The translations under genes were made by a program, and so were the position numbers. Shown piece after piece: positions 1-48,539 of a stretch of DNA of 64,000 nucleotides (within the stretch, counting starts at the first letter, position 1; every line of letters starts with the position of its first letter). This DNA comes from Escherichia phage vB_EcoM-LTH01. Where the stretch lies: sequence record PP430345; one strand, given 5' to 3'. The notes under the pieces are model-generated. The model ran no database searches and was not told the DNA's origin. It saw only the letters and a list, made by a program, of their open reading frames with translations.

Positions 1-44
1 AATGTAAAAAGTTATCAGAGAATGAATTAAGTCATCTTCAAGCT

Positions 45-266
45 ATGAGAGAAGCTTGGCATTCAGCAAAAGCTGGACTGAAAGTATGTGTTGTGACTGT
101 TTACGAATGTGACTGGTACACCATTTTGGGGAACTATTACGGAGTAATGAATCAGTATGTGGAAAAAGGCTTGATTTATCATCGTGTGGAAGATAGTATG
201 AATCCTGACTTACAGCTTGTGGCTGAAGATTTGGATAATGTACTAATAACTTTGGAGATGATCTAA
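45..266 (+). CDS. hypothetical protein (frame stays open to window start; may be 5'-truncated)
   Basis: 73-aa ORF; no in-frame stop between position 3 and the ATG at 45. Confidence 0.4.
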   Translation: MREAWHSAKAGLKVCVVTVYECDWYTILGNYYGVMNQYVEKGLIYHRVEDSMNPDLQLVAEDLDNVLITLEMI

Positions 267-409
267 TGAAAGAGTGTAACGATATTGTTGCGTTTGGATT
301 GAACATCGTGGAGTTTGGAACAGTGTGGTTTCTGATGCTAATAGCATTTGGTGTCAGTTTGGTTAAGTATCTTAACAAAGGTATTGGAGAGAGGAAAAGT
401 AAATCATGA
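266..409 (+). CDS. small hydrophobic protein (47 aa)
   Basis: ORF below track cutoff; TAATG overlap with upstream stop and ATGA overlap with next start; hydrophobic core FGTVWFLMLIAFGV. Confidence 0.3.
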   Translation: MKECNDIVAFGLNIVEFGTVWFLMLIAFGVSLVKYLNKGIGERKSKS

Positions 410-705
410 AATTGATCTTTAGTGATGAATTAAGCGAGCAGTTGGAAAACATCTTTCGTGCACAGGAAAAGCCTCGGTTCTACTTGTGGTGTACAGAACT
501 GAATGACCAGTTTAAATACCTCGAAGAAATCCTCGAAGGGAGGGGTGTAGAACTCACTGTGGCGAAAGTAAGACAGAACTGTGACAACTTATGCCTCTCT
601 GTGATTGGTGACGCTGACGAGGTTGCTTGGATGGATATGGCCCTATTGGTCTATTCACATAATCATCGTTATAAGCACCTTCTTGTTTTGGAGCATATGG
701 AATGA
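406..705 (+). CDS. hypothetical protein
   Basis: 99-aa ORF, ATGA overlap with next gene. Confidence 0.5.
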   Translation: MKLIFSDELSEQLENIFRAQEKPRFYLWCTELNDQFKYLEEILEGRGVELTVAKVRQNCDNLCLSVIGDADEVAWMDMALLVYSHNHRYKHLLVLEHME

Positions 706-1040
706 AAAAGTCTATTGTGGCGTACAAGTTGTTTAGAGTCAGGAAAGACGGTACAATAGGCCCCCTATTTATCAATAGATCTTTAGTCGTAGAAAAGAAT
801 AAGTGGATGGAAGCTGAAAATCATCCTACTCGGGGATTTTCTGTACGACCAGGTTGGCATTGTACACTTAAACCTGAAGCTCCTCATCTGAAGATAAACC
901 TTAAATCGGGAGAGATCCGTAAATGGTTCAAGGTTGAAGTTCAAGGCACTGTTAATTTTCAAAGACCTGAATCTCAAGGCGGCACTTGGATATTGGCAGA
1001 AAGATTACGCGTTCTGGAGGAGGTATCTGGCAGTGTGTGA
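702..1040 (+). CDS. hypothetical protein
   Basis: 112-aa ORF in operon-like packing. Confidence 0.5.
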   Translation: MKKSIVAYKLFRVRKDGTIGPLFINRSLVVEKNKWMEAENHPTRGFSVRPGWHCTLKPEAPHLKINLKSGEIRKWFKVEVQGTVNFQRPESQGGTWILAERLRVLEEVSGSV

Positions 1041-1272
1041 ATGTGATAATTGTAAGCTTGGGAAAAGGATCGGGGATGTTCGAGAATACCTGAAAGATCG
1101 CCCTGATCTTGTTGACACTCTTGATGAACTGTATAGTGAATACATTCATGTAAGTACGGATCTTGAGTGGCTTGAGAACGTTGTAAATAAAAGGTGGCCT
1201 AATTACCAGGGGTGTATGAAGGCTTATGGTTGGGTAGAGGACAAAAAGGAGACTAATGATGAAAGTTGTTGA
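1033..1272 (+). CDS. hypothetical protein (GTG start; track ORF begins at 934)
   Basis: track start would overlap upstream gene by >100 nt; in-frame GTG at 1033 preceded by GGAGGAGG. Confidence 0.4.
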   Translation: MCECDNCKLGKRIGDVREYLKDRPDLVDTLDELYSEYIHVSTDLEWLENVVNKRWPNYQGCMKAYGWVEDKKETNDESC

Positions 1273-1450
1273 TATAGAGATCAGTGAGAACATTGCTGGT
1301 GGGTATTCTCTTCTGGTATGTAATCGTGAAGGTGGTGAGATTGTTCACGGCTATAAGGTTGGTGGGATGGACACTGTAGAGTCATTCACTGTTCCTTTGG
1401 ACGTATTACTGGAAGCAATCAAGAATAACACCTACGATACTGAAGAGTGA
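1256..1450 (+). CDS. hypothetical protein
   Basis: 64-aa ORF. Confidence 0.45.
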   Translation: MMKVVDIEISENIAGGYSLLVCNREGGEIVHGYKVGGMDTVESFTVPLDVLLEAIKNNTYDTEE

Positions 1451-1454
1451 TGCT

Positions 1455-1826
1455 ATGACGACAGAGAAGAAGCCTTTTGACAAGACGGCCTTTGTTTTTA
1501 ATACGCCAGTTGAAAAACTTGAAGAATGTTTGTTGACATGCAATGAAGAGTTGAGTAGACTGCTCACTATTCCGAAACCGGACCCTTGGGTACAGGATCG
1601 TATCGACGATCTGTCTTATTGGTTGGGTATTTGGGAGCTACAGCTTCCTGACGCTAAGAGACGGAAGATGACAACCGTTCCTATGAGTGCGATAGAAAGA
1701 GTCGTGCTTGGGCTGTATGAGAAGCCAGAGGAGCCTAAAAAGGCTTGGACCAAACCGAAAAAGAAAGCACCACCAAAGGTGGAAAAGGAGAAGAAACGTG
1801 TCACAAAAAAGAAAAAGTCTGTCTGA
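1455..1826 (+). CDS. hypothetical protein with lysine-rich C-terminus
   Basis: 123-aa ORF; C-terminal KKAPPKVEKEKKRVTKKKK tail. Confidence 0.5.
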   Translation: MTTEKKPFDKTAFVFNTPVEKLEECLLTCNEELSRLLTIPKPDPWVQDRIDDLSYWLGIWELQLPDAKRRKMTTVPMSAIERVVLGLYEKPEEPKKAWTKPKKKAPPKVEKEKKRVTKKKKSV

Positions 1827-2199
1827 GAAATGGCTTAGTAACGGAATGTCAAACCAGTGGATTGATTCTGGATTGGCAACCTGCTTGAAAAAGCCAAACA
1901 AGACGCTCATCGAAGAAGAACCAAAAGATGAAGTTTTCGAATCTCCGAATGGAAGTGTTTGGATTGTGGCTGTCGATTACAGTGGACGGGTAACCGTCCT
2001 TAAAGCACCAAATATTCATCCTGCATTGCTTGACGAGGGTCCTGAAGCGGAGTATATTGGTCTTCCACCTGATTCAGATTCTGGCCCTGGTGTTTACCGT
2101 TGGACGTGTAGTTATCATGAAAGTAAGGATCGAGAATCTAATCTTGTGGACGGTTTTGAGTTTCATGTGGAGAAAGAAGAGGTTCTTTTCTCTGTTTAG
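1798..2199 (+). CDS. hypothetical protein (GTG start; track ORF begins at 1708)
   Basis: in-frame GTG at 1798 preceded by AAGGAG at 7-nt spacing; alternative ATG at 1846. Confidence 0.4.
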   Translation: MSQKRKSLSEKWLSNGMSNQWIDSGLATCLKKPNKTLIEEEPKDEVFESPNGSVWIVAVDYSGRVTVLKAPNIHPALLDEGPEAEYIGLPPDSDSGPGVYRWTCSYHESKDRESNLVDGFEFHVEKEEVLFSV

Positions 2200-2208
2200 G
2201 AGGAAACA

Positions 2209-2430
2209 ATGAGGATAAGTAAGAAGACTCATCCGTTTTATTTCACCAATGTCTATATGGGTGGGGAACTGAAGAAATCCAGCTTTGATGCTTGGTATCG
2301 AGGGATCAAAGCATTCGCATTTCTCCGTCGGAACATTGGTGGCATCATTAAAAAGAATGATCAGTTCTTTAAAGAGAATCCTGATTATGTTGAAGGTGCT
2401 CTTTGTGGAAAACTAAAGGAGACTAAATGA
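2209..2430 (+). CDS. hypothetical protein
   Basis: SD AGGAGG upstream; 73 aa. Confidence 0.5.
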   Translation: MRISKKTHPFYFTNVYMGGELKKSSFDAWYRGIKAFAFLRRNIGGIIKKNDQFFKENPDYVEGALCGKLKETK

Positions 2431-2762
2431 AATATCGGTTCAATGGCTACAAAACTAAATTTACCTCTCTTAAGTTTGTTGTTGGTAAGGTATATGATTT
2501 CAAAGATCGAGTTTTTGAAGTTGCTAATGAAGATGGGATCATGCTATCGGGTAGCGACGAGAATGGTACAACCGGAGTGATCGTATTTTTTAAGGACTAT
2601 GATTTCGAAGTTGTTGGGGAGGGAAGTCCTGAGATACGGTATATTGTTAGTGGCAAGAATGTAACTAAAGAGGTCTTTGAAGAGGTTAAAAAATCCCTAG
2701 AAGATCTTGACAAGATTGGGTTTGGTCTGGCAAAATACACATTAGAAATCAAAGCAAACTAA
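2427..2762 (+). CDS. hypothetical protein
   Basis: 111-aa ORF, ATGA overlap. Confidence 0.5.
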   Translation: MKYRFNGYKTKFTSLKFVVGKVYDFKDRVFEVANEDGIMLSGSDENGTTGVIVFFKDYDFEVVGEGSPEIRYIVSGKNVTKEVFEEVKKSLEDLDKIGFGLAKYTLEIKAN

Positions 2763-2771
2763 GGAGAAGTG

Positions 2772-4139
2772 ATGAGCGTAACTAAGATTATCGAACAACT
2801 GGCAGCAACCGGATCAACAAAAGAAAAAGAAGCGATCTTACGTAGTCATGCGGATAACGATGGCCTGCGTGAAGTATTTCGGGTAGCATATAGCAAAGAG
2901 TTAAACTTCTTTGTTCGCAGTTTTAAGGTTGATCCTGCAACTTTCCACCAAGGAAGCCGTAATCTGCAAGAGAGTATTGATCTTATCGTCAACGATGTTG
3001 CAAGCCGTATGTACACTGGGCATGAAGCTCGTGATGTTCTCACGAATGCCGTTCAACTGTGTGAAGAACCCGAAACCCTGATAAAGATCATCAACCGCGA
3101 TCTTGAGTGTGGTATCCAGACAACTCTGACCAACAAGGTTTGGAAGGACCTGATTACAGAGCCTCCTTACCAGAGCTATACTCTTTTCAAAGAGGATCTC
3201 CTTCGTAATTTCAACTATGAGGGTGCTTTCTCCGACGAGAAGATGGACGGACTTTATGCAGACATTATGGTTTGGCCTGAGCAGGTCATTTATCGTTCAC
3301 GATCAGGGAAAGAGCTTAATTTCCGGTGTATTACTTCACTTGAGCAAAACCTGAAAGAAAAAGCCAATTCTGATGGTCCTTTTGTTATGCACGGGGAAGG
3401 TTTAGTTATTGACCTGTCATACCCGCACGGGGTTCAACCACGAGAGATCGGTAACGGATATCTTAACCAAGATCCTGAAAACATTGATCCTAATCTGGTA
3501 CGTTTGGTTGTTTGGGATGTTGTTTCTATGGACGAGTATATCGCACGTAAATCCAAGAAAAAATATAAAGACCGTCGTAAGCAGGTTGAAAATATTGTCA
3601 ACTATGTTGATGAGTCTTCTCATTTCCAGATGATCCGTGGTCGTCAGATAGGCAGTCTTAAAGAGGCTATTGACCACTTTATCGAAATGCGTTTGCAGAA
3701 GAAAGAGGGTACGGTTCTTAAAGAAGCGAATATGCCTTGGGGAGATAACAAGACTAAGAAAGGGATCAAACTTAAAAATGAGTTCGATGTTGATCTTGAG
3801 GTTGTGGCGACAACGCCTCACAAGAAGAAGCCTGGGCTTATTGGATCTCTGGTCTGCCGGACTCGTGATGGACTTCTTGAAGTTGGTGCTGGGTCTGGAC
3901 TTACTGATGCGCTTCGTAAAAAGCCGAGTGAGTATTTCATTGGGCAGATTATTACGATCAAGGCTAATGACATTACTGATGCGGAGAATAAAGATCTGAA
4001 ATCGCTGTTTTTGCCACGTTTAAATTATAAGTTTGTTGAACTTCGCTTTGATAAGAGCGTAGCCAACAGCCTGGAAGAAGTGATCGAAGCATCGAACTCT
4101 CTTCTGGATCTTCTTCGTAAAATTGCAGAGGAGGTTTAA
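2772..4139 (+). CDS. ATP-dependent DNA ligase (T4 gp30-like)
   Basis: N-terminus IEQLAATGSTKEKEAILR resembles T4 ligase; KMDG (KxDG adenylation lysine motif); RDLECG; NAGSGL-like GAGSGL; LFLPRL C-terminal motif. Confidence 0.9.
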   Translation: MSVTKIIEQLAATGSTKEKEAILRSHADNDGLREVFRVAYSKELNFFVRSFKVDPATFHQGSRNLQESIDLIVNDVASRMYTGHEARDVLTNAVQLCEEPETLIKIINRDLECGIQTTLTNKVWKDLITEPPYQSYTLFKEDLLRNFNYEGAFSDEKMDGLYADIMVWPEQVIYRSRSGKELNFRCITSLEQNLKEKANSDGPFVMHGEGLVIDLSYPHGVQPREIGNGYLNQDPENIDPNLVRLVVWDVVSMDEYIARKSKKKYKDRRKQVENIVNYVDESSHFQMIRGRQIGSLKEAIDHFIEMRLQKKEGTVLKEANMPWGDNKTKKGIKLKNEFDVDLEVVATTPHKKKPGLIGSLVCRTRDGLLEVGAGSGLTDALRKKPSEYFIGQIITIKANDITDAENKDLKSLFLPRLNYKFVELRFDKSVANSLEEVIEASNSLLDLLRKIAEEV

Positions 4140-4141
4140 TA

Positions 4142-4603
4142 GTGGAAGCTTTAATTATCGCTGTTGTGGGGATTACACTTTACCTTTCCGTAATTTTGGG
4201 CGTTCCCGTGTTGCTTACTCGTAAGCCAGCAGGTAAGATCTTGAAGTTGATTCGTGAAGGATCTTCTCGGTTTGAGGTACATTCTGGAGTTTTTGTTCCT
4301 GAGGGCCATGAAGATCCTTGTGAGGATAATGATGATCTTTGGTATGTTGATTATACAATTGTTGATACGGTCACAGGTAAGGTTACTTACATTGAAAAGG
4401 TTTGTGGTATTATCTCCGATAGCCTTTTCGTAAATGGCGATCTGTTCTGGATGAATGATTATGAAGGTACACGACTTTACCACACCTGTCGTCGAATCGT
4501 TAAGCGACGTAATAAGGCTTCAAAAAAGGACAAACGATCTAAGTTCGAGATCGAAAAGGATGAAGCACGTAAAGTTGCACTAGAAACTTATAAAGACTGT
4601 TGA
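4142..4603 (+). CDS. membrane protein (N-terminal TM helix)
   Basis: GTG start after GGAGG; N-terminal ALIIAVVGITLYLSVILGVPVLL. Confidence 0.5.
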   Translation: MEALIIAVVGITLYLSVILGVPVLLTRKPAGKILKLIREGSSRFEVHSGVFVPEGHEDPCEDNDDLWYVDYTIVDTVTGKVTYIEKVCGIISDSLFVNGDLFWMNDYEGTRLYHTCRRIVKRRNKASKKDKRSKFEIEKDEARKVALETYKDC

Positions 4604-4656
4604 CAATGATAAGGGGCCATTATACATGACCCCAAGTTAAACGAAAGGAGATTAAA

Positions 4657-5394
4657 TTGAAATACAATGAATTGAGTACTGATCAAAAAACCTTTATTTC
4701 CGAGATGATTGATGTTAAGGGCAATAGCTTCTTTCGGGAAGCAGCAGAGCGAGTAAAAAATTGGAATTTTGTTGCTCGTGGTTTTCATGACTTCTCTGAA
4801 GATGTTTCAAAATTCCAAAAAACTCTTGTTATGGAAGAGTACAATGAACTTTATGATCTTGGTTTAACTAAAAAGAATCGTAAGGAAATCATAGATGCAC
4901 TTTGCGACTTGTTTGTAGTTGGATCATATTACAACTTCTTGAAAGGTGGTTCTGAAAACATCTGTCCTGCTGACAATGTTGGTACGTATAATCTGACTTC
5001 GCTTTATCGAACTCTTGATCAATTTATCGAGAGTGACAATACAAACGGGATCGTTATGGCGGTTGTTGCAATCATGCAGAACTCCAACTTTAATGCTCAT
5101 CGTGCTTTAAATGAGGTTTTGGATTCAAATGATTCCAAGATCCCAACCGTGAAAGAATTTACAGAAGGTTTCTACAAGACGTATTACTTTTTTGCAGAAG
5201 CTGATTTTGATCTTGATGCCATGATGCGTTTGGAAGCAGAACAGATTGAACTGCGTAACCGTAACCGTTATCATGGTGTGAAGGGAAGTATCGTAAAAGG
5301 TGGTGATGGTATGGATCGAGTAGTATTTAAAGATAAGAACGGCAAGATCATGAAGCCGATCACTTATTTTGAAGCAAACCTAGAGGGAATGTAA
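4657..5394 (+). CDS. hypothetical protein, possible MazG-like NTP pyrophosphohydrolase fold
   Basis: TTG start 9 nt after AAGGAG; EEYNELYDLG...EIIDALCDLFVVG resembles the MazG EExxE...DAxxD pattern (tentative). Confidence 0.5.
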   Translation: MKYNELSTDQKTFISEMIDVKGNSFFREAAERVKNWNFVARGFHDFSEDVSKFQKTLVMEEYNELYDLGLTKKNRKEIIDALCDLFVVGSYYNFLKGGSENICPADNVGTYNLTSLYRTLDQFIESDNTNGIVMAVVAIMQNSNFNAHRALNEVLDSNDSKIPTVKEFTEGFYKTYYFFAEADFDLDAMMRLEAEQIELRNRNRYHGVKGSIVKGGDGMDRVVFKDKNGKIMKPITYFEANLEGM

Positions 5395-5397
5395 TTA

Positions 5398-5574
5398 ATG
5401 CCGTTGTATTCTTACAAATGTGAAAAATGTGGTGAAGTTTTCGATCAAAATAGAAAGATCGCAGAACGTGAAAATGCTCCTTGCAAGTGTGGAGAGATTG
5501 CAGTAAAATGTTTGTCTGCTCCACGAGGAATTAAAAACGGTTATTGTGACCAGGGTAAAATGTTTGTACGATAG
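5398..5574 (+). CDS. zinc-ribbon protein (FmdB-like CxxC...CxC)
   Basis: 58-aa ORF MPLYSYKCEKCGEVFD...CKCGE; below track cutoff. Confidence 0.45.
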   Translation: MPLYSYKCEKCGEVFDQNRKIAERENAPCKCGEIAVKCLSAPRGIKNGYCDQGKMFVR

Positions 5575-5582
5575 GGGGAATT

Positions 5583-5927
5583 ATGAATCAAGAAAAAGAT
5601 GTTGAAAAACCTGGCTTACCTGTGTATGATGGTTCTCAGACTAAAATTTCTTTTGATGGTTTAGTTATTACGGGTCTTGCAAGTGGTAAAAAATATGCTC
5701 GTCGTCCAAACGGTTATCATGAGATCTATGTCAGTGCATTAAGTCCTTTTGTCCGTCAGTTCCAAATTGGACTAAAAGGTAATTTAACCTTGAAGATCCA
5801 TACGGGTTATGAAACATTTGCAACGTGTACTTTACCTTGTGAAACTGTAGCTCTGCTTGTGTCAGAGATCAGTGATGAAATCCCAGTCTTTCAGGTTGTT
5901 TTTAAAGAACTTAAAAATCCTGCTTGA
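5583..5927 (+). CDS. hypothetical protein
   Basis: 114-aa ORF, SD GGGGGAA upstream. Confidence 0.5.
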   Translation: MNQEKDVEKPGLPVYDGSQTKISFDGLVITGLASGKKYARRPNGYHEIYVSALSPFVRQFQIGLKGNLTLKIHTGYETFATCTLPCETVALLVSEISDEIPVFQVVFKELKNPA

Positions 5928-6012
5928 CATAAGATATTGAATGGGGTATTCTTACCCCATCGAAGCAAAGAAGTTAACTTACTATTTAAACATTAAAGAG
6001 GAGAAATACAAA

Positions 6013-6324
6013 ATGGCTAAATCTAAAACTGACCTGATCACTACCCTGCCTTCTGACCTGGAAGTTCGTAAGCGTCTGGCTAACATTGTTCAGGAAGGTG
6101 TTGAAGCTGTTCGTCGTCAGAAAGATGCTGCTGAAGATCTGAAAAGCATCCTGGCGATCACTAAAGAAGACCTGAACATCGACCCTAAATTCCTACGTAC
6201 CCTGATCAACGGTGAATATGATAAGCAAGATGCAGCAGAGAAGAAACGTGCAGCGCTTGAAAGCCAGATTGAACAACTGAACGAACTTGATATCTTGATG
6301 GGCCGTGAAGTTGGTGAAGAATAA
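6013..6324 (+). CDS. hypothetical protein (start moved to internal ATG with strong SD)
   Basis: AAAGAGGAGAAA SD 7 nt before ATG at 6013; track start 5941 lies inside a promoter/hairpin. Confidence 0.55.
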   Translation: MAKSKTDLITTLPSDLEVRKRLANIVQEGVEAVRRQKDAAEDLKSILAITKEDLNIDPKFLRTLINGEYDKQDAAEKKRAALESQIEQLNELDILMGREVGEE

Positions 6325-6364
6325 TATAAAGTTAATATCTTAAACTTCTATAAGGAGAAATTCT

Positions 6365-6586
6365 GTGAATATCAAAGAAGTTAATCCAGGGCAGACAGTT
6401 AAGTTCAACCCACTGGGTAATTATGAGGATCGCTATAATTTGTACGGTGTTCAAGTTGGTGATACAGGTGTTGTTGAATTCGTTGATGAAGAATGTGAAT
6501 ATGTCACTGTTGCATTCACACGTCAGGACGGTGTTATCGTTGATGGTTTCTACGCAGAAGCTGAAGATTTAGAACTCGTAGCTTAA
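6365..6586 (+). CDS. hypothetical protein
   Basis: GTG start after TAAGGAGAAA. Confidence 0.5.
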   Translation: MNIKEVNPGQTVKFNPLGNYEDRYNLYGVQVGDTGVVEFVDEECEYVTVAFTRQDGVIVDGFYAEAEDLELVA

Positions 6587-6649
6587 GTAACGATCGGGCC
6601 ACATTAGTGTGGCCCTTATAATGAAAAATACAAAAAAGGAGATACAAAT

Positions 6650-6892
6650 ATGAATATTAATTTTAACGACGCAACTTACGAAAAACTGAAATACCTGGCT
6701 ACTCTGGAAGGTCGATCAGTTGCAGCGTATATCTCCCAAAAGATGGATGAGCTTACAGGTCAACTGGTAAATGTTGAATATTCACTGAATGATATTCCAG
6801 AAGGTACGCCTCTTGCTCATATGGATCTAACTCCAAAGCCACGAATCGTAGATCGTGACACTGATGAACAAGATGGTTACGCAAATTGGTAA
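6650..6892 (+). CDS. hypothetical protein
   Basis: AAAAGGAGA SD; followed by intrinsic terminator. Confidence 0.55.
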   Translation: MNINFNDATYEKLKYLATLEGRSVAAYISQKMDELTGQLVNVEYSLNDIPEGTPLAHMDLTPKPRIVDRDTDEQDGYANW

Positions 6893-6902
6893 AAATTTTT
6901 AA

Positions 6903-6928
6903 GCCGCCCTTCGGGGCGGTTTTTCTTT
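6903..6928 (+). terminator. intrinsic terminator
   Basis: GCCGCCCTTCGGGGCGG hairpin followed by TTTTTCTTT. Confidence 0.75.
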
Positions 6929-6937
6929 ATCTATCTC

Positions 6938-6965
6938 TTGACACCTGCCTCCAGTTCTGTATAAT
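6938..6965 (+). promoter_or_regulatory. sigma70-like promoter
   Basis: TTGACA - 16 nt - TATAAT. Confidence 0.6.
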
Positions 6966-6994
6966 ACCTATATCAACCAACAACAGGAGATAAA

Positions 6995-7183
6995 ATGAAT
7001 ATTAAACTTACAAAAGAAATGATTGCCGTGTTTATGCAAATTTCGTCAGTTCGTGATGGGATGAGTAAAGAATCTAAGAGTATTAAGTTACCTGAAGTTG
7101 ACTCTCTCGTAACACTTCTTGAAAATGTTGGAGCACTTATTCTTCGTGAAATGACCAAGCAAGATTCTACTACAGAGGGGTGA
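6995..7183 (+). CDS. hypothetical protein
   Basis: first gene after a near-consensus promoter; SD CAGGAGA. Confidence 0.5.
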
Positions 7184-7187
7184 TCAA

Positions 7188-7652
7188 TTGAAAACTTTTA
7201 AAGAACGTATGGAATTGTTAGATAAAGCTTTGTCTCGTGAAACTCCAGAGAGTTTGTTTGAAAAACTACAGTCATACGGAAATGCTGATTACTCTTTCGA
7301 AGATATGATGGATGAGATTCCTGAGATCTGTTGGCAAACATGTTATTGGAATAACGATCAAAAAGTTCAACGTACTATTGTATGTGCAGCTAATCGGTTT
7401 AAATTGAAAGATGGTGGAACTCTGATTATCCCTGGATCTCGTCATTACTCTAAGGATATGGCAGAAGTGCTTGATGTGGTGGGGCCACAATTAGTATCTC
7501 AGCAAGTTTGTGGAGACGATCAAGGCTTTATCGACCAATACGGTAATTATTGGAATCGTGAAGAAGCAATGATTATTGCAACTTATGCCGGACAGGTACG
7601 TATCGAACGTGGTGGAAGTGAGAAAGAACTTTACTCGGAGGACCTTTACTGA
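7188..7652 (+). CDS. hypothetical protein
   Basis: TTG start after GAGGGG; 154 aa; conserved-looking IVCAANRF...GSRH segment of unknown family. Confidence 0.5.
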
Positions 7653-7924
7653 TGAACACTAAACAGCTTACTATTGAAGCTTTGCAGCTTAAGATAAAAC
7701 AAATCGAGTATCTTAACCAGATGATGAAAGAGGGTTGGGGTACGTATACTAATCAGCCTGCCTGGGAGGCTTTAGGTCATCCATACCTGAACGATGCTTG
7801 TAATGGTAATATTCCTCGTGATGGGTTGAAACCTTTCTTACGGGATATGTACATTAAGGTTAACGAAGAGATCATTGATTCCCTTTACTATCAGATCAGG
7901 AAACTCGAAAATGAGAGTAATTGA
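7652..7924 (+). CDS. hypothetical protein
   Basis: 90-aa ORF. Confidence 0.5.
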   Translation: MNTKQLTIEALQLKIKQIEYLNQMMKEGWGTYTNQPAWEALGHPYLNDACNGNIPRDGLKPFLRDMYIKVNEEIIDSLYYQIRKLENESN

Positions 7925-8111
7925 TTCTAAAAGTGATTATTTCAATTCTTTAAATGATAAGGACAAGACTAAGATTCGTCACTTCATCGTAGAGATGGGA
8001 TACACCAACTCTGAAGATTTGAAAGAGCATATTCTCGAATGTTACGTAGCTAAGAAATTTTCTTTGACAAGTAAGTGTTTAAATGAGATTATACAGCACT
8101 ACACGGCTTAA
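7911..8111 (+). CDS. hypothetical protein (start moved to internal ATG)
   Basis: track start 7875 overlaps upstream gene by 50 nt; ATG at 7911. Confidence 0.4.
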   Translation: MRVIDSKSDYFNSLNDKDKTKIRHFIVEMGYTNSEDLKEHILECYVAKKFSLTSKCLNEIIQHYTA

Positions 8112-8124
8112 GGGGGATAGTTGA

Positions 8125-8457
8125 ATGGGTAAATTAGTTGTTTTGGAAGTTCGGGCAGCAGACTTAGCAAAGGCAGTTGGTTTCTTTAAATTTGAAGATT
8201 CTGAATTTCGTGAGCGATGGGGACTTAACTTACCATCCAAAATCTGTGGTCTTTTTAAGGCAAGTCAGATCGAAGACCTGATTATTAAAAAGATTGTTAA
8301 TCTTGATGGTGTGGAATTTAATAATATTGTCGTTTTCGACGAAGACTTTGATTGGTCTGCCTATTGCAGCCTTTCAGATTGGATTGCTAAATTCCCGATG
8401 GCAGAAAACTGTTCTGTTTCAATTCCTGGATCTTTACTGGAGATTGTGAATGTATAA
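8125..8457 (+). CDS. hypothetical protein
   Basis: SD AAGGGGGA. Confidence 0.5.
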   Translation: MGKLVVLEVRAADLAKAVGFFKFEDSEFRERWGLNLPSKICGLFKASQIEDLIIKKIVNLDGVEFNNIVVFDEDFDWSAYCSLSDWIAKFPMAENCSVSIPGSLLEIVNV

Positions 8458-8686
8458 TCAAGATATCGAAACGATTAAAGAAAGGCTTAAGTTGATGACA
8501 GCTTCGCCCAATGTAACGACTAAGGATGTTGATCTTATTCGTCAAACACTTCATGTAATAAATTCATTAGAAGAGGAGATCAAGTCTCTCAATGTTGATG
8601 TAGGTTGTTACAAACATGCTTATGTTGCGTTTGCTGACATTACGAAGATTATGGCTCGGGAGTTAGAAAAATCGAAACATTCTTAG
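8450..8686 (+). CDS. hypothetical protein
   Basis: 78-aa ORF. Confidence 0.5.
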   Translation: MYNQDIETIKERLKLMTASPNVTTKDVDLIRQTLHVINSLEEEIKSLNVDVGCYKHAYVAFADITKIMARELEKSKHS

Positions 8687-8822
8687 GGGTTATCGTTTTA
8701 ATACTGGCATTCTACCTCTTCACAAGAGCGTGCTGGATTGGATTTTTCAGTACGCCTGACGGATTACTTTCGGTAGTGCTATTCTTGATTTCAATATCTG
8801 CATTGGATCTATAGGAGTTTTT

Positions 8823-9374
8823 ATGCGAGTCACTGATAAACATGTGTTCTTTTATTCTTATCGCGATGTTTTTAGTAATCATTACCAGGAGATCTCTCCA
8901 TTCTCAAACTTCGACCAGAAGATGAAGGGGGTTTATTTCCACACTGGTGAGCATTACATGATGTATGAAAAGGCTATGCTTTTCGGTGACAAAGCTTCAG
9001 CGGAAAGGATCATTAAGGCCGTAACGCCGCAAGGTGCTAAAACGCTCGGTCGTAAGGTAAAGAATTTTGATCAGGCAGTTTGGGATGAAAATAAATTTAA
9101 CATTGTGACCCGTTTAGTGTATAGTCGTATGTGTGATAATGGTAATCTCCGTGAACTTGCGGTAGGTTACCGTAAAAAGGGTTTGAAGTTTGTAGAAGCC
9201 TCGCCGAGAGATCGTATATGGGGGATCGGTATGGACGAGAATCATCCTATGGTAGATGATGAAAGTTTCTGGTATGGAGAGAATCTTTTGGGGAAAGCCT
9301 GGGACGAAGCAACGGATATGATTATCGATGTTTCGGAAGCTATGAATATGATTGGTAAATGTGAGGCATACTAA
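8823..9374 (+). CDS. NADAR-family protein (YbiA/DUF1768-like N-glycosidase / ADP-ribose processing)
   Basis: VFFYSYRDVFSNHYQ...FSNF...GEHYMMYEKAMLF...IWGIG pattern typical of NADAR domain. Confidence 0.65.
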   Translation: MRVTDKHVFFYSYRDVFSNHYQEISPFSNFDQKMKGVYFHTGEHYMMYEKAMLFGDKASAERIIKAVTPQGAKTLGRKVKNFDQAVWDENKFNIVTRLVYSRMCDNGNLRELAVGYRKKGLKFVEASPRDRIWGIGMDENHPMVDDESFWYGENLLGKAWDEATDMIIDVSEAMNMIGKCEAY

Positions 9375-9878
9375 ATGAAATTAACTATCGAATTAATCCC
9401 AAGCACAGCTTGGGACAACAACCTTCGGTCTTACCTTACCCAATCTGGTTGGGACAAAGTTCGTCGAAAGTGCTATCAAGAAGCAAACTACCACTGTGAG
9501 GTTTGTGGAGGTCAAGGTGGAAATGGACGTAAGCATCCATGTGAAGCTCACGAGGTATGGGACTTTGTTGATGGGGAAGTTGTGTTAAGGGGTGTGATCG
9601 CTTTATGTCCTCCTTGCCACGAAGTAAAACATATCGGTCGTGCTCAAGCGACTGGTAACATGACTCGTGCAATACGACACTTTATGAAAGTTAACGGTGT
9701 TGACAAGAAGGCTGCTGAAGAATACATTAGGCAAGCTGCGGCATTGTGGCGAGAAAGAAGTAAGCAAGAGTGGTCTTTGAATATCGATTATCTGTATGAA
9801 TACATGGGTAAAGATTTCAAATTCAAGCGACCAGTAAAAGAAGTTAAAGAAGACGAAGATTACGGCGAAGCATTTTAA
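9375..9878 (+). CDS. HNH-like zinc-finger protein (possible nuclease)
   Basis: CEVCGG...HPCEAHEVW...CPPCHEVKH cysteine/histidine motif. Confidence 0.45.
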   Translation: MKLTIELIPSTAWDNNLRSYLTQSGWDKVRRKCYQEANYHCEVCGGQGGNGRKHPCEAHEVWDFVDGEVVLRGVIALCPPCHEVKHIGRAQATGNMTRAIRHFMKVNGVDKKAAEEYIRQAAALWRERSKQEWSLNIDYLYEYMGKDFKFKRPVKEVKEDEDYGEAF

Positions 9879-9891: not shown

Positions 9892-11001
9892 ATGGGTTAT
9901 CCGGTAATTGAAGATTGGTCAGGTATTATCGAAGACAACGTGGTTGTTGCACTTGATCTCGATCAAACTTGCTATGTTGCTGCGGCTGGTGCAGAAAAAA
10001 GAACGATCATCGCTCGACACAAGGAGACTGGAAGGGAAAAAGAATTTCGCAACAAAACAGAGTTTTGGGGTCGCCAAAAGAATGTTGTTGGTGGATGGTT
10101 AAAAGACCAAAACATTAATATGGAAGCAAAAGCGGTTGCTCGCGGAAAAGAATTTACTCCGTGGACCCGTGATGATTTCGAGATCATTGAAAAGCAAACT
10201 CCAGAACCAGTGGAGAACTGTCTTCACTTATTGAAGATTAAGATCAATGCTATTCTTGAACACGTAGGATCAGCAAACGGGCTTGGTGTTTTAGGTGGGA
10301 GTGGTAACTTCCGTCTTGCACTCCCGACCCCTGAGATCTATAAGGGTAACCGTGAAGATACTTTACGTCCTCTGTTGCTTGGGGAGACTCGTCGATATGT
10401 TCAGCAGAAGTATGGTGCGATCATTGTGGATGGTATTGAGGCAGATGATTATTTATCGATCCTTGGTTACAAAGGTTATTTAAATTATCGAAAGACTGGA
10501 AAGTTCAGTCATATTGTGGCATCCTTTGATAAGGATCAGGTTCAGGTTCCTTCTCTGTTGTTTAACACGATGCGTGATTCAACAGAGCGTACTTGGAAAC
10601 ATCCTGAACTCTGGTTGATTGATGATTCTATGGGTGAGATCTGGATGGAGTCTGGAAAGGTAAAAGGCTGGGGTAAGAAATTCTTCGGTTACCAAATGCT
10701 ATTTGGTGATGCAGCGGATAACGTTAAACCATATCAAACCTTCGAGGGTCTTCGCTTTGGTGAAACATCGGCTTTCCAGGTCATCTCCCCTTGTGCAGAC
10801 GAGAAGAGTATGTGGTTAGCTATTATTGATCAGTATAAGAAGTGGTTTCCTGAGGGTGTTGAATATACAGACCACTTAGGGAATCATCGTAAGTTTTCAG
10901 CGGGTCAGTGGGCTTCTGTCATTTTCCAGTGTGTTTATATGAAGCGCACAGAAAATGATAAGACAACATTATCCTCAACTTTAAAACGGGTAGGTATTTA
11001 A
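9892..11001 (+). CDS. 5'-3' exonuclease / flap endonuclease (FEN, T4 RNase H / T5 D15 family)
   Basis: VVALDLDQTCY acidic N-motif, YKGNRE (YKxNR) and GIEADDYLS (EADD) motifs. Confidence 0.7.
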   Translation: MGYPVIEDWSGIIEDNVVVALDLDQTCYVAAAGAEKRTIIARHKETGREKEFRNKTEFWGRQKNVVGGWLKDQNINMEAKAVARGKEFTPWTRDDFEIIEKQTPEPVENCLHLLKIKINAILEHVGSANGLGVLGGSGNFRLALPTPEIYKGNREDTLRPLLLGETRRYVQQKYGAIIVDGIEADDYLSILGYKGYLNYRKTGKFSHIVASFDKDQVQVPSLLFNTMRDSTERTWKHPELWLIDDSMGEIWMESGKVKGWGKKFFGYQMLFGDAADNVKPYQTFEGLRFGETSAFQVISPCADEKSMWLAIIDQYKKWFPEGVEYTDHLGNHRKFSAGQWASVIFQCVYMKRTENDKTTLSSTLKRVGI

Positions 11002-20498: not shown

Positions 20499-20840
20499 AT
20501 GAAGATTTGGCTTGATGATTTGAGAGATCCGAAAGATTACGGGCATGATGATGCCACCTGGTTTAAAAATTCTGACCAGTTTATCGAGTTCCTTGAGGAC
20601 CCTAATAAAATGTATCGTCGGGTAACAGAATGGCATTTCGACAATGACCTCGGTGAAGATTCAAAAGAAGGTTACCGCTGCTTAGAAATGTTAGAAGAAA
20701 AGCTTGTGTTTGGCAAACCGATCCTGTATCCTGCTGTTCTGTTTGTTCACACTTCAAATCCGAGTGCCGCACAAAAGTTTATGGCAGCAAAGGAAGTCTT
20801 TAAGCGATATGGGATTGAAATTTTAAGAAATAACTATTGA
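20499..20840 (+). CDS. hypothetical protein
   Basis: first gene after terminator-promoter module; SD AGGAGGAAAAG. Confidence 0.55.
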   Translation: MKIWLDDLRDPKDYGHDDATWFKNSDQFIEFLEDPNKMYRRVTEWHFDNDLGEDSKEGYRCLEMLEEKLVFGKPILYPAVLFVHTSNPSAAQKFMAAKEVFKRYGIEILRNNY

Positions 20841-29864: not shown

Positions 29865-30025
29865 CTAGAAATGGTAGTTCAGCATACGAGAAGGGCCGAG
29901 CAGCCGGATTCAAGTTTGGGATGTTCAAGAGAAACAACCCGTATGATCCAAACACCATGCCGGAGCAATTTCAAGATTGGGAATCAGGATTTACAAAAGG
30001 GTATCAAGAAAAGGGGTGGTTATGA
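29861..30025 (+). CDS. hypothetical small protein
   Basis: ATGA overlap; SD GAGGGGAAAGAG; track start 29831. Confidence 0.4.
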   Translation: MTRNGSSAYEKGRAAGFKFGMFKRNNPYDPNTMPEQFQDWESGFTKGYQEKGWL

Positions 30026-30066
30026 GTGGATATGTGGGGATGGAAATAATAGGAGAAGAGAGAGTA

Positions 30067-31317
30067 ATGAAAGTTTACTTGGTAGGTGGCGCAGTTCGTG
30101 ATGAACTGATGAGTGTTGAAAGTAAGGATCGGGACTATGTAGTCGTCGGCGCGACCCATGAAGAAATGATTGAAAAGGGATTTACTAAGGTTGGTGCAGC
30201 TTTCCCTGTGTACCTTGAACCAAACACAAAAGAAGAGTACGCTCTTGCTCGAACGGAAAGATCAACAGGTCCTGGTTATCACGACTTCGAGGTTGTGTTC
30301 TCTCCCGACGTTACAATTGAACAAGACCTGATGCGAAGAGATTTGACCATTAATGCTATTGCCAAGGATCTTTCTACGGGTGAAATTATTGACCCTTGCG
30401 GTGGTGTACTCGATATTGAACTTCGTCGGTTACGTTGTGTATCCACTAAAGCATTTATCGAAGACCCTTTACGTGTATACCGATTAGCCAGATTACATGC
30501 CAGATACGGCGGCGAGTTTACAATTGATCCTGAGACTTGGGGAATGTGCAAGGATGTTGATTTAAGTGCATTGCCAAAAGAGCGTAAATTTGCAGAGATT
30601 AAGAAATGCTTTAGTGATCAGTCAGAAATGAATAAACCTTCGGTAATGATCCGTATGTTGACTCAACTGGGAGAATTTCCTGAGCTTGTGGATTTATACG
30701 ATGTTGTTCAACCCAAGGAGCACCACCCTGAAGGTGATGCATTTGTTCACACTTTACTTTGCATGGATTATGCCCAAGCGACTCGTGCAAGTGAAGCTGT
30801 GAAGTGGGCAGTTCTGTGTCACGACTTAGGGAAATGCATTTATTGGTTAACAGGTAAATTGCACGGGCATGAAGAACATGGTATCAAGTTGACTGAACAA
30901 GTTTGCGATCGCTTTGGTGTTCCTAACAATTGGAAGAAGTTAGCTTTAGCTGTAACTGAGCACCATACACGACTTCACCGTATCAAAGAGATGAAGCCAA
31001 AGAAAGTTTACGACTTGTTGGTAGCCTTACGTGGTGAAAAGGACCAGGCATTCCTTTCTGAGTTTATTGACGCTTGCATCTGTGATGCTCGTGGTCGTGG
31101 CCCTGAAAAAATGTTTGACAACTACACCCAGCCTTTGGTATTATTCTCAGCACTGGCGGGGATTGTTCAAAACAGCGTTGCAATCTCAAAAGAAAGTAAA
31201 GAGATTTCTGAAAGATTTGCTGGACGTCCAGAAGAGATCAAGAATAGAATCCGAAATGTAAAAGTAAGGTACGTTACACAATACATCGATAAGATGAAGG
31301 AGAGTGAAAATGGTTGA
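30067..31317 (+). CDS. cca: CCA-adding tRNA nucleotidyltransferase with HD domain
   Basis: MKVYLVGGAVRDELM head motif; HD motif LCHDLGK; ~416 aa like bacterial Cca; track start 29977 is an upstream extension. Confidence 0.85.
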   Translation: MKVYLVGGAVRDELMSVESKDRDYVVVGATHEEMIEKGFTKVGAAFPVYLEPNTKEEYALARTERSTGPGYHDFEVVFSPDVTIEQDLMRRDLTINAIAKDLSTGEIIDPCGGVLDIELRRLRCVSTKAFIEDPLRVYRLARLHARYGGEFTIDPETWGMCKDVDLSALPKERKFAEIKKCFSDQSEMNKPSVMIRMLTQLGEFPELVDLYDVVQPKEHHPEGDAFVHTLLCMDYAQATRASEAVKWAVLCHDLGKCIYWLTGKLHGHEEHGIKLTEQVCDRFGVPNNWKKLALAVTEHHTRLHRIKEMKPKKVYDLLVALRGEKDQAFLSEFIDACICDARGRGPEKMFDNYTQPLVLFSALAGIVQNSVAISKESKEISERFAGRPEEIKNRIRNVKVRYVTQYIDKMKESENG

Positions 31318-33288: not shown

Positions 33289-34416
33289 ATGGAAAATTCA
33301 GTTGTGAGTGCTGGAAAGGTAAAAAGTATCGTAGAGAAGATGGAAAAGCATCCAGACGTAGCAAAGGTCTTGATGTTGAGTCTGGCAGGATCTCATGCGT
33401 ATGGTACGAATAACGAAGGCAGTGATATTGATATTCGTGGGGTTTTTGTTGCAACTCCAAATGTGGTTCGTACCCCATTCAAAGAGGTTACTGAATTAAA
33501 CATCCCTGGTGAAGAGGATGCCAAGATCTACGAGTTGGGAACTTTCCTTCAACTGTTTTCGAAGATGAACCCAAATATCATTGAACTGGGTTTTACTGAT
33601 CCGAAAGCCACATTGTACGAGCACGAAGCTTGGAAAGAGATGAAAGAACATTTCTACTCCTTACTGTCTCGTGAAGTTGCATTTCGCTTCAGTGGTTATG
33701 CAATGTCTCAGTTAAAGCGGATCAAGGGTCACAACAAACACATTAATAATCCGCAACCAAAAGAGCCACCAACTCAATTTGACTATTTCCGTCTGGTGCA
33801 GAGCTATCTCGGAGAAGGTGAGTTGAAGTATGAAGACTTTGTTCGTAAATTTAAAAACATGGAAGGCTTCTGTACTCTGGTTCCTTACGGTGGTAACATT
33901 TACGGTGTTGTAGAAGATCGTAGTGAAGATGTTCAACCAATGTTTAATAAAGATGGTTCTATCCGTAAGCTGGATTATGAAGAAATCCCAGAGGAGGTTA
34001 AAAGAGGTAAGACACTGATGATTGTTAAGTATTGTGCAGACGATCATAAATGGGCCAAGGATAAACATCACAACTACTGGGAGTGGGTTAAGAATCGTAA
34101 CGAGAAGCGTCATGAACTGGAAGAGAAGTTCGGTTACGACACTAAACATGCTATGCATTTGGTCCGGCTTCTTCGGATGGGTGAAGAAATCCTCACAGAA
34201 GGTAAAGTTTTAGTGAATCGACCAGACGCTGAAGAACTCCTCGCAATCCGAAATGGTGAATACCGCTATGAAGAAATTGTTGACTGGGCTGAAGAAAAAG
34301 ATAAAATGATCACAGATGTTCTTTATAAGCAATCGAGCTTACCGAAGAAAACAGATCTGAAGATTGTTGAAAAACTTATTCTGGAGGCACAAGACAAGGT
34401 ATGGAAGGAAACCTAA
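33289..34416 (+). CDS. Pol-beta-superfamily nucleotidyltransferase
   Basis: LSLAGSHAYGTNNEGSDIDIRGVF = GS-x(9)-DxD NTase motif; ~300-aa helical C-terminal region. Confidence 0.6.
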   Translation: MENSVVSAGKVKSIVEKMEKHPDVAKVLMLSLAGSHAYGTNNEGSDIDIRGVFVATPNVVRTPFKEVTELNIPGEEDAKIYELGTFLQLFSKMNPNIIELGFTDPKATLYEHEAWKEMKEHFYSLLSREVAFRFSGYAMSQLKRIKGHNKHINNPQPKEPPTQFDYFRLVQSYLGEGELKYEDFVRKFKNMEGFCTLVPYGGNIYGVVEDRSEDVQPMFNKDGSIRKLDYEEIPEEVKRGKTLMIVKYCADDHKWAKDKHHNYWEWVKNRNEKRHELEEKFGYDTKHAMHLVRLLRMGEEILTEGKVLVNRPDAEELLAIRNGEYRYEEIVDWAEEKDKMITDVLYKQSSLPKKTDLKIVEKLILEAQDKVWKET

Positions 34417-42044: not shown

Positions 42045-43244
42045 ATGTTAGAAATGTTGAACTTAGGTGCTGTGGCCTCTCTACCGCCGATTGATGGTGA
42101 AATTTCACCTGAATTTATCCAAGCGCAGCAATCGATAGTTATGTATCTTCACAGGCCAACTGGCAATCTTTACGGGTATGGTAATGCACCTGTATACCGA
42201 TTCGGAGACGGTATCCCAACAGAAGTGCCGAGCTTTAAACTTATCTATTCAAACTGTAAATATTTCTGGTTGGGTCAGGCTAGTACACTTGTTGCAACAA
42301 ACGATGATAAATTCTATTATGCTGGGGTCAGAAACGCATTTCCACCACTGGGGACAGGTGGTGGTAACGTTGCTTACTTTACTGAAGTTACAGTACATTT
42401 TAACAATATTGGTGTGACACCTGATGATATAAAAACTCTGGCGCTCGGTAGCGGATCTTGTAGGCTTCTGACAAAAGATGGTCGTGTTTTCTGCTGTGGT
42501 CTTAACTCTAATGGTGAGTGTGGGAACGGTACAAGAAATATGATTGCAAACTTTGTCCAGATCACCAATATGGGACCTATATCTCAATTGGCTACAAGGG
42601 CTTTCGGTACTCATTTCTTAACTGAAGATGGCAGGGAATTCTTTGCAGGGTACGATGCTTACGGGGAAAGTGGCCTAGGTGCTCTTAACAGCCACTTACA
42701 AACTCCAACATTGGTTACTTCGGGTGTTAAAAACATAATTGTTGCTACGGTATGTACTTGGAGAATAATGCAAAATGGAGACGTGTATTGGAGCGGTTTG
42801 AATACTCAAGGTTCTGCGGGAACAGGTTCATTTAACAACGCAGGTACGGTCCTAAGACCTATAAAAAACGATGCCTTGAGTGGAAACTTACCGGAGGGTG
42901 ATTTATTATATCCATCAGGCATCCAAACAGGTGATGCAACGGGTGCTCCGATCATTTGTTTCGGGAGAAACACTATCAAAAACGGTGGTGAAAACGGATC
43001 AGGTCAAGTGGGTGATGGTGTAAGTTATACATCGGTATATAACTATGTGGACATGTACAAACCTGCAACCTTCGGAGATAAAAAGGTTATTGGGGTGGCT
43101 AAAGATTATGTACGATCATTTATCTTAACTGAAGATTATCAATTGTTTGCCGCAGGTGGTAGAACAGCAAGTGGATGGACACTCCCTGATGGAGGGACCA
43201 GTGTTACACCCATGCGCCTCATGGCTAGTATGCCTTGGTACTAA
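42045..43244 (+). CDS. RCC1-like Gly-rich repeat protein, paralog 1 of 4
   Basis: starts MLEMLNLG; repeated G-x-N-x-x-G-x-x-G-x-G units such as CCGLNSNGECGNGT and WSGLNTQGSAGTGS. Confidence 0.7.
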   Translation: MLEMLNLGAVASLPPIDGEISPEFIQAQQSIVMYLHRPTGNLYGYGNAPVYRFGDGIPTEVPSFKLIYSNCKYFWLGQASTLVATNDDKFYYAGVRNAFPPLGTGGGNVAYFTEVTVHFNNIGVTPDDIKTLALGSGSCRLLTKDGRVFCCGLNSNGECGNGTRNMIANFVQITNMGPISQLATRAFGTHFLTEDGREFFAGYDAYGESGLGALNSHLQTPTLVTSGVKNIIVATVCTWRIMQNGDVYWSGLNTQGSAGTGSFNNAGTVLRPIKNDALSGNLPEGDLLYPSGIQTGDATGAPIICFGRNTIKNGGENGSGQVGDGVSYTSVYNYVDMYKPATFGDKKVIGVAKDYVRSFILTEDYQLFAAGGRTASGWTLPDGGTSVTPMRLMASMPWY

Positions 43245-43257
43245 TAAGGAGAATAGA

Positions 43258-44391: not shown

Positions 44392-44400
44392 GGAAAAATT

Positions 44401-45540: not shown

Positions 45541-45562
45541 AAAACTTCAAAAGGGGAATTAA

Positions 45563-47887: not shown

Positions 47888-48023
47888 AGACAACCCGAAC
47901 GCCCTTTGGGAGAATTGTGACTACCTTTTATGGCCTAACTGGTATCATTACTTGACTTATGGCATTATCTTAGTGTTAATCGCATCCGTCGCCGTACTGT
48001 CGGCTATGGAGCAACTACGATGA
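47874..48023 (+). CDS. small membrane protein (49 aa)
   Basis: internal ATG of track ORF 47766; TM segment LTYGIILVLIASVAVL. Confidence 0.3.
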   Translation: MTGNKDNPNALWENCDYLLWPNWYHYLTYGIILVLIASVAVLSAMEQLR

Positions 48024-48206
48024 CTGCTGGGGTAGTGATCGCGCTACCACTACTGATACTGGCGTTCTCCATGATTATGGTGGACATTATGGAGAAAGGA
48101 CGATGAATCACACTGACACAAAGAAGGGTCAGTGGGGCACTTGGTGAACACTTAACATCAGGGTTTAAATCATAATTACCCTATCGACAATAAAGAGGAA
48201 ATTACT

Positions 48207-48416
48207 ATGAAAACTGTACGCATTGAAGACGTTGATTTCGACGAAACCGAGGTTAGCATCAAGAAGTCTGGGATCGGCAACCTCGTCTCTGTAGACTTCA
48301 ATCCCGATGAATATGAAGAAGGAAATACATTAATGTATTATACACCAGAGGCAGCACGTAAGCTTGCGGCAGCACTTATCACCGCAGCAGACGAAGCAGA
48401 GCAGGGTGAGAAGTGA
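48207..48416 (+). CDS. hypothetical protein
   Basis: AAAGAGGAAA SD. Confidence 0.5.
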   Translation: MKTVRIEDVDFDETEVSIKKSGIGNLVSVDFNPDEYEEGNTLMYYTPEAARKLAAALITAADEAEQGEK

Positions 48417-48419
48417 GAT

Positions 48420-48539
48420 ATGAACATTTACGAAATGGTAACAGTTGAGCACGTCCTGTTTGACCTTAATAACGGATACATTAACGTTTGTTGCGGTGAT
48501 ACATTAACTTCAATTGTTAAATTGGAAATTGAAGATTAG
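48420..48539 (+). CDS. small protein (39 aa)
   Basis: ORF packed exactly between neighbours. Confidence 0.3.
   Translation: MNIYEMVTVEHVLFDLNNGYINVCCGDTLTSIVKLEIED

Follow-up and report, generated by a model that had tools for sequence, protein, structure and literature searches.

The NADAR gene described here, which lies among the replication genes of an E. coli phage, is best explained as encoding a stand-alone NADAR N-glycohydrolase, and probably one that counters DarT1-type toxins in the manner of AdfN, an orphan antitoxin. The gene is intact and held under purifying selection, its product has the NADAR fold and a conserved site, it stands without a toxin partner and it is an accessory gene. 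It was studied within a 64,000-nucleotide stretch of phage DNA, referred to below as the window. The concept of counter-defence by phage NADARs has already been published, between 2023 and 2025. What is new is a NADAR clade of the Vequintavirinae sensu stricto (the window phage, Certrevirus and Seunavirus), the members of which emerge by sequence as AdfN-like candidates.

The open reading frame runs from an ATG start to a TAA stop and specifies 183 amino acids (Table 1). A longer start, giving the 214 amino acids of the A5-4 annotation, is excluded by an upstream in-frame TGA in the window together with the conserved Shine-Dalgarno sequence and ATG. Strong purifying selection acts on the gene. 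Its nearest orthologue, that of phage UPEC06, was taken as the reference and differs by 20 synonymous and 2 non-synonymous codons (dS 0.22). Since the resulting dN/dS is only around 0.02, we infer that this is a maintained gene for a functional enzyme. The base composition gives no sign of an anomaly, with a GC content of 41.5% in the gene against 40.5% across the window. The spacer that precedes the gene has just 4 differences from UPEC06, despite the dS of 0.22 in the gene itself. Neither a sigma-70 consensus promoter nor a terminator was found within this spacer, its RNA fold has a z-score of -1.1, and no Rfam family matched anywhere in the window, the spacer included. A search of the window for tRNAs found none.

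Table 1. Coordinates of the NADAR gene, its active-site codons and related features of the window
Feature	Position	Strand	Basis or remark
DNA ligase	2769-4139		replication/nucleotide-metabolism module
Non-coding spacer, 136 bp, presumed 5' UTR or regulatory region	8687..8822	+	function inferred only
Shine-Dalgarno AGGAG, 5 nt 5' of the NADAR ATG	8813..8817	+	sequence; identical in UPEC06 and A5-4
NADAR-family gene, stand-alone single domain, AdfN-like candidate	8823..9374	+	ORF, profiles, model, dN/dS
Glu43 codon; equivalent to catalytic E43 of PnNADAR and E88 of E. coli C7 DarG1	8949..8951	+	
Lys50 codon; equivalent to phosphate-coordinating K50 of PnNADAR and K95 of C7 DarG1	8970..8972	+	
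R77, W87 and K91 codons; equivalent to ADP-ribose-contacting R79, W89 and R93 of PnNADAR	9051..9095	+	
E125-A-S-P-R-D130-R-I-W133 active-site motif codons	9195..9221	+	alignment, residue check
Exonuclease	9892-11001		replication/nucleotide-metabolism module
cREC domain protein	20499-20840		
RlaP-type nucleotidyltransferase	33289-34416		RNA-repair type

By its profile matches and its structural model, the protein is unambiguously a member of the NADAR family with a NADAR fold. The Pfam profile PF08719 (NADAR, DUF1768) is matched over positions 10-158 of 163 with E = 4.3e-37 and 128.3 bits (cut-off 35.1), the equivalog_domain model TIGR02464 with 129.8 bits (cut-off 73.7), and PHROG 1017, for which PHROG lists no function, with E = 4.9e-47. 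Among proteins of solved structure, phmmer returned the NADAR of Phytophthora (8BAU, E = 7e-14) and E. coli YbiA (2B3W, E = 5e-5). An AlphaFold2 model built from an alignment of 61 homologues (pLDDT 97, pTM 0.91) has a helical core with strands, 7-10 and 122-125, around it, and so a YbiA-like fold. When this model was compared with the PDB by Foldseek, 8BAU was retrieved at E = 3.8e-10 with a TM score of 0.74 and 28% identity, and YbiA 2B3W with TM scores of 0.69/0.75; no fold besides these two appeared at E < 1. In BFVD, which holds predicted viral structures, the 39 specifically named matches at E <= 0.001 are NADAR or YbiA-like, bar one viral helicase fragment, and about 10 matches are nameless. 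The earlier note had taken this gene for that of a phage NADAR-family protein, a reading borne out by the exact open reading frame, the Pfam match and the superposition on 8BAU and YbiA. The note had named two grounds for dropping it, the lack of a NADAR profile match and the loss of catalytic residues, and neither applies.

The residues expected of an active NADAR are also in place. In 8BAU, ADP-ribose is contacted by E43, K50, R79, W89, R93, E125, D130 and W133 (Schuller et al., PMC11543638), and mutagenesis of the E. coli C7 DarG1 found the equivalents of E43, K50 and E125 to be required (PMC11543638). The corresponding window residues in the phmmer alignment are E43, K50, R77, W87, K91, E125, D130 and W133, the sole substitution among the catalytic and ligand equivalents being that of R93 by K91. 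With the exception of K91, all of them are invariant in the alignment of 61 homologues. The E-x6-K spacing of E43 and K50 is the same as that of E36 and K43 in AdfN-T4, both of which are required by that protein (PMC11257639), and mutagenesis of the lysine equivalent to K50 has been published (PMC11543638, PMC11257639). At position 125, glutamate marks the general and YbiA-type proteins, aspartate DarG1, and histidine the T4-type AdfN (PMC11543638); the window protein is a Glu-type NADAR because it has glutamate there. Judged by its homologues, it is predicted to be catalytically competent.

NADARs were found in 2023 to remove ADP-ribose from the N2 of guanine and to include DarG1, the antitoxin of the DarT1 toxin (PMC11543638). 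Tested members of all four NADAR families hydrolyse G-ADPr in DNA and RNA in vitro (PMC11125620, PMC12945103), and those of the general and YbiA types take C-ADPr off DNA and RNA as well, an activity lacking in DarG1 and T4 AdfN (PMC12945103). Protection of cells from DarT1 is not given by every NADAR (PMC11125620, PMC12945103). YbiA and T4 gp30.3 do not rescue uninfected E. coli from DarT1 toxicity (PMC11125620), and the hydrolysis of G-ADPr in vitro is therefore no guarantee of protection in the cell. Johannesman et al. (Nat Commun 2025, PMC11825919) found AdfN-T4 (gp30.3) to be both necessary and sufficient for T4 to overcome DarTG1, and a later transposon screen found T4 AdfN to be conditionally essential. 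Two unrelated stand-alone phage proteins, AdfN-Bas32 and AdfN-Bas60, neutralise DarT1 even in the absence of an infecting phage, and they restore the plating of RB69, T5 and Bas25 on DarTG1, but not that of T5 on DarTG2 (PMC11825919); for AdfN-Bas60 the tests were by ectopic expression only (PMC11825919).

Among the proteins tested in this way, AdfN-Bas60 is nearest to the window NADAR. It was traced through the published cloning primer to bas60_0111 of Escherichia phage PaulScherrer, and has 38% identity to the window protein over 170 amino acids (E = 5e-30). Both are stand-alone NADARs of 183 amino acids, encoded by large myoviruses of E. coli for which no DNA modification is reported, both have the N-terminus MR[VI]TDK.VFF and the E...K and VEASP.D motifs, and both score above the TIGR02464 cut-off and match PADLOC PDC-M42C. 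They differ in that AdfN-Bas60 has a 7-residue insertion of its own before KRLGR, a tyrosine where the window protein has W133, and a C-terminal tail of unrelated sequence. Its phage belongs to the Stephanstirmvirinae rather than the Vequintavirinae, and its gene neighbourhood is another one, as is that of its Phapecoctavirus relative. A crude neighbour-joining tree puts the window protein together with those of phiTE and GAP31, with AdfN-Bas60 in the same broad group and E. coli YbiA and AdfN-T4 apart from it. On sequence, then, the window protein is a homologue of a validated AdfN and not a near-identical copy of one. The idea that it might be a near-identical orthologue of a "Vequintavirinae" NADAR-Bas60 was set aside, as the identity is 38% only and Bas60 is now placed in the Stephanstirmvirinae. 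With 38% identity to its closest tested counterpart, the window protein may differ from it in substrate preference.

Comparison with the other characterised NADARs shows what the window protein shares with each. The best match of solved structure, PnNADAR of Phytophthora nicotianae (8BAU), a member of the "general" family, is likewise of the Glu type at position 125 and hydrolyses guanine-ADPr (PMC11543638), but it is eukaryotic, is without a known role in virus-host conflict and has short N-terminal and internal extensions beside the active site. AdfN-T4 belongs to the same superfamily, is a phage orphan antitoxin with the same E-x6-K spacing and is encoded, in T4 as well, a few genes from DNA ligase. 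It shows no similarity to the window protein by BLAST, does not match TIGR02464 and has a histidine in place of E125. AdfN-T4 does not remove C-ADPr and depends on the context of a T-even infection for full activity. A paper on phage phiC120 with a mention of NADAR was left aside, as the phage there is described with T4-type motB domains. The authors of the AdfN work also mention a "non-enzymatic phage NADAR". The DarG1 proteins of E. coli C7 and Geobacter lovleyi have the same fold and the same predicted reversal of guanine-N2 ADP-ribosylation, yet their genes lie beside DarT1, whereas Pfam scans showed no DarT domain in the flanks of the window NADAR or elsewhere in the window. An aspartate (D171 in C7) stands where the window protein has E125. 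At its N-terminus DarG1 also carries a basic beta1-beta2-alpha1 extension, with a proposed role in ssDNA binding, which is absent from the window model; both the alignment and the AlphaFold2 model place the beginning of the window NADAR at the first core strand. E. coli YbiA, a weak G-ADPr hydrolase in vitro (PMC11125620), shares the fold and a Glu-type active site, but is a chromosomal protein from a LexA-controlled operon with dinG and is only 26% identical (42 bits).

The source of the window is, by its sequence, an rV5-related (Vequintavirinae) phage of E. coli; the DNA has about 93-94% nucleotide identity to the Escherichia phages A5-4, A7_1, A73, W70 and UPEC06, all unclassified Vequintavirinae. 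The NADAR gene lies on the + strand within a replication and nucleotide-metabolism module in which DNA ligase, exonuclease, EndoVII, ThyX and ribonucleotide reductases follow in this order, and its neighbours are homologues of the T-even genes arn.1-3, small ORFs, an HNH endonuclease and the exonuclease. The order NADAR, HNH, exonuclease, EndoVII is common to Certrevirus phiTE and Seunavirus GAP31, the NADARs of which are 54% and 49% identical, respectively, to the window protein; the mutual identity of the NADARs of the window phage, Certrevirus and Seunavirus is about 50-57%. In the rV5-like Vequintavirus Bas55 (JeffSchatz), no NADAR is found between ligase and exonuclease. The interval there is just ~2 kb and retains the HNH gene (48% identical). 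The presence of the NADAR gene in phiTE and GAP31 and its absence from this locus in Bas55 mark it as a lineage-variable accessory gene, inserted 5' of a core HNH-exonuclease block. The published DELTA-BLAST of the BASEL phages likewise lists NADARs in Bas32/33 and Bas60-62 only (PMC11825919). The stop and start codons of NADAR and HNH abut (TAAATG), but a two-gene module of the pair was rejected, since HNH is a core gene retained in the NADAR-less Bas55. Pfam scans of the ~106 other ORFs of the window found no DarT or other ADP-ribosyltransferase, macrodomain, sirtuin, KptA, Nudix or NAMPT/NAD-salvage domain.

How such a protein would act can be outlined from its homologues, which also supply the predictions of its enzymatic activity, its guanine-ADPr substrate and its anti-DarTG1 phenotype. 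The NADAR would be expressed together with the phage genes for replication and nucleotide metabolism. A DarT1-type toxin of the host would set ADP-ribose adducts on the phage DNA, and these would be stripped off again: K50, R77, W87, K91 and W133 would hold the ADP-ribose moiety while E43 and E125, with D130, would hydrolyse the N-glycosidic bond from ribose C1'' to guanine N2. Phage replication could then continue in E. coli that carries DarTG1. The plausible target is the guanine-specific DarT1 only, not the thymine-specific DarT2. The earlier note had suggested counter-defence against either DarT-like toxins or NAD-derived signalling; the former suggestion is supported, such counter-defence being by now the experimentally demonstrated role of stand-alone phage NADARs (PMC11825919), while the latter found no direct support.

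Close cellular and metagenomic relatives of the window protein sit in NAD-salvage and RNA-repair neighbourhoods, which counts against an anti-DarT1 role. Iyer, Aravind and colleagues hold that most phage NADARs act on soluble substrates (PMC9503650), and here these would be ADP-ribose derivatives that arise as by-products of NAD-dependent RNA repair or serve as NAD-derived immune signals with an N-glycosidic ribosyl bond. In line with their view, a Tenacibaculum homologue (45% identity, 74% of the query) is encoded in an ARH-KptA-SIR2-Metallophos-NADAR-NAMPT cluster, a phage-like metagenomic homologue lies near genes for RNA ligase, NAPRTase and Metallophos, and the window itself has genes for a cREC domain protein, a CCA-adding enzyme and a nucleotidyltransferase of the RlaP type. 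These three, however, are 11-24 kb distant from NADAR and not adjacent to it. When the partner proteins of the Tenacibaculum and metagenomic homologues were compared by tblastn with the window and with the complete genome of UPEC06 there were no matches, and homologues of KptA, sirtuin, NAMPT, RNA ligase, macrodomains and ADP-ribosyltransferases went undetected in both. Phages of the rV5 type are reported to carry a sirtuin-cREC RNA-repair set (PMC9503650), yet Bas55 has no NADAR at the locus, which suggests that NADAR and this set are separable. Moreover, the sole soluble NADAR substrates demonstrated in the cited literature are riboflavin intermediates. A soluble ADP-ribose derivative is an unlikely substrate. 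The riboflavin intermediates themselves would be the substrate if the protein were a housekeeping N-glycosidase of the YbiA type that destroys reactive intermediates of riboflavin biosynthesis. The score against TIGR02464 and the annotation of the UPEC06 gene and the PaulScherrer homologue as ybiA or YbiA-like would fit such a role. The TIGR02464 match cannot be used to call function, though, because the anti-DarT1 protein AdfN-Bas60 passes the cut-off too (109.4 bits). YbiA is also the more distant relative, at 42 bits against the 96 bits of AdfN-Bas60, and is surpassed by 8BAU as a PDB match; no domain of riboflavin biosynthesis was among the Pfam matches of the window ORFs and the reaction is not one that a lytic phage would obviously need, all of which makes this role very improbable.

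Two further readings keep the protein in the conflict with host defences but change what it does there. It might be an active de-ADP-ribosylase for another nucleic-acid adduct, such as C-ADPr, the G-ADPr of RNA or tRNA, or whatever an as yet undiscovered ADP-ribosylating defence produces, with DarT1-modified DNA as a minor substrate or none. Glu-type NADARs, to which E125 assigns the window protein, remove C-ADPr as well, and RNA G-ADPr is removed by all NADAR families (PMC12945103); the authors of the AdfN work expect some phage NADARs to act against other defences that ADP-ribosylate DNA or RNA. On the other hand, no known E. coli defence yields C-ADPr or RNA G-ADPr, and the nearest tested relative acts on DarT1 (PMC11825919). 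This reading is unlikely, and it overlaps with the AdfN-type explanation without excluding it. Alternatively, the protein could bind a toxin without catalysis, as a mimic of an antitoxin. Non-enzymatic anti-DarT proteins do exist, namely AdfA and, in ICP1, AdfB (Gp145), but the catalytic and ligand residues invariant in 61 homologues and the dN/dS of 0.02 speak for a conserved enzyme, and AdfN-T4 depends on E36 and K43; a mere binder is thus barely credible. For the Vequintavirinae NADAR clade as a whole, there is a small chance that it is not primarily directed against DarT1 and would act instead on C-ADPr, RNA G-ADPr or an N-glycosidic NAD-derived immune signal from a defence system with no link to NADARs so far. 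If this is true, the variable 5.7-kb stretch from the ligase to the HNH-exonuclease block (4140-9374, the arn.1-3 homologues included) would be an anti-defence island with further inhibitors.

The preferred reading, that of an AdfN-like orphan antitoxin, would give a testable function to a family that public records mostly label "hypothetical protein"; the UPEC06 gene is entered as "swarming motility protein ybiA" and the PaulScherrer homologue as "YbiA-like N-glycosidase". Some of the phages concerned come from groups considered for therapy. The same reading predicts a split in sensitivity to DarTG1, with the NADAR-positive Certrevirus, Seunavirus and window clade on one side and the NADAR-negative rV5-like Vequintavirus on the other. 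The NADAR family itself is present in 717 phage records, including those of Staphylococcus, Listeria, Enterococcus, Klebsiella, Salmonella and Cronobacter myoviruses.

One region of interest is the interval between the DNA ligase gene and the HNH-exonuclease block, which spans ~5.7 kb in the window but ~2 kb in Bas55, an rV5-like phage with no NADAR gene at this locus. In addition to the NADAR gene, it holds homologues of arn.3, arn.2 and arn.1 and small ORFs that have no Pfam match, and the whole could be a variable island of accessory or anti-defence genes. At the nucleotide level, the three arn homologues are ~77-78% identical to sequences of T4-like phages, Mosigvirus among them, an identity implying that genes were transferred between the Straboviridae and the Vequintavirinae clade of vB_EcoM-LTH01. 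In related records they are labelled 'anti-restriction nuclease', although in T-even genomes arn.1-3 are just neighbours of arn.

The 136-bp spacer directly 5' of the NADAR gene differs from that of the close relative UPEC06 at just 4 positions, despite a synonymous divergence of ~0.22 in the adjoining NADAR gene, which suggests that it is a constrained non-coding element. No sigma-70 consensus promoter was found in the spacer, an Rfam search with it gave no match, and its predicted fold was not significant (z = -1.1).

On the other side, the NADAR stop codon and the start codon of an HNH endonuclease gene are contiguous (TAAATG). This HNH gene is kept in the Certrevirus phiTE (61%), the Seunavirus GAP31 (59%) and the NADAR-less Bas55 (48%), and because of this conservation it looks less like a homing endonuclease of sporadic occurrence than like a core HNH that may have been domesticated. 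The close relative A5-4 carries an additional 164-aa gene, which from its sequence looks like a putative HNH/AP2-type homing endonuclease. Since the window has no counterpart of this gene between HNH and exonuclease, a recent homing-endonuclease insertion polymorphism is suggested.

Features discussed in this part, by position in the window unless another sequence is named
Feature	Position	Strand	Assignment or remark
Ligase to HNH-exonuclease interval	4140-9374	+	
arn.3, arn.2, arn.1 homologues (three ORFs)	7188-8111	+	Pfam T4_Y16D, Y16C, Y16B
Spacer	8687-8822		
HNH endonuclease	9375-9878	+	PHROG 5200
Additional gene of A5-4	L010 (A5-4 sequence piece) 3078-3572 = window ~9878/9892		between HNH and exonuclease
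cREC protein	20499-20840	+	RNA-repair-type
RlaP-family nucleotidyltransferase	33289-34416	+	RNA-repair-type
CCA-adding enzyme	29977-31317	+	RNA-repair-type
Four tandem paralogous genes, ~380-400 aa each	42045-46714	+	RCC1-like beta-propeller domains
Cluster with a bacterial homologue of the NADAR (P0080)	L013 (Tenacibaculum sp. sequence piece) 1-8549		GCA_964050775.1

The Tenacibaculum NADAR homologue lies within a compact cluster of NAD/ADP-ribose enzymes, comprising an ADP-ribosylglycohydrolase, KptA/Tpt1, SIR2, a metallophosphoesterase, NADAR and NAMPT. In the phage window, an RNA-repair-type gene set is present. Its cREC ('cyclic-phosphate processing receiver' domain) gene is flanked by the two ribonucleotide-reductase subunit genes, and in UPEC06 the protein is wrongly annotated as 'RNA ligase 1 and tail attachment protein'. 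Neither tRNA genes nor Rfam families were found over the whole 64-kb window.

In the last quarter of the window (~47900-64000) there is a shift to many short ORFs, mainly on the minus strand, and none of the ORFs of at least 70 aa scanned there was among the Pfam families listed. The four RCC1-like paralogues, named solely as hypothetical proteins in UPEC06, have a common N-terminus, MLEM(L/M)NLG, and pairwise identities of 26-62%.
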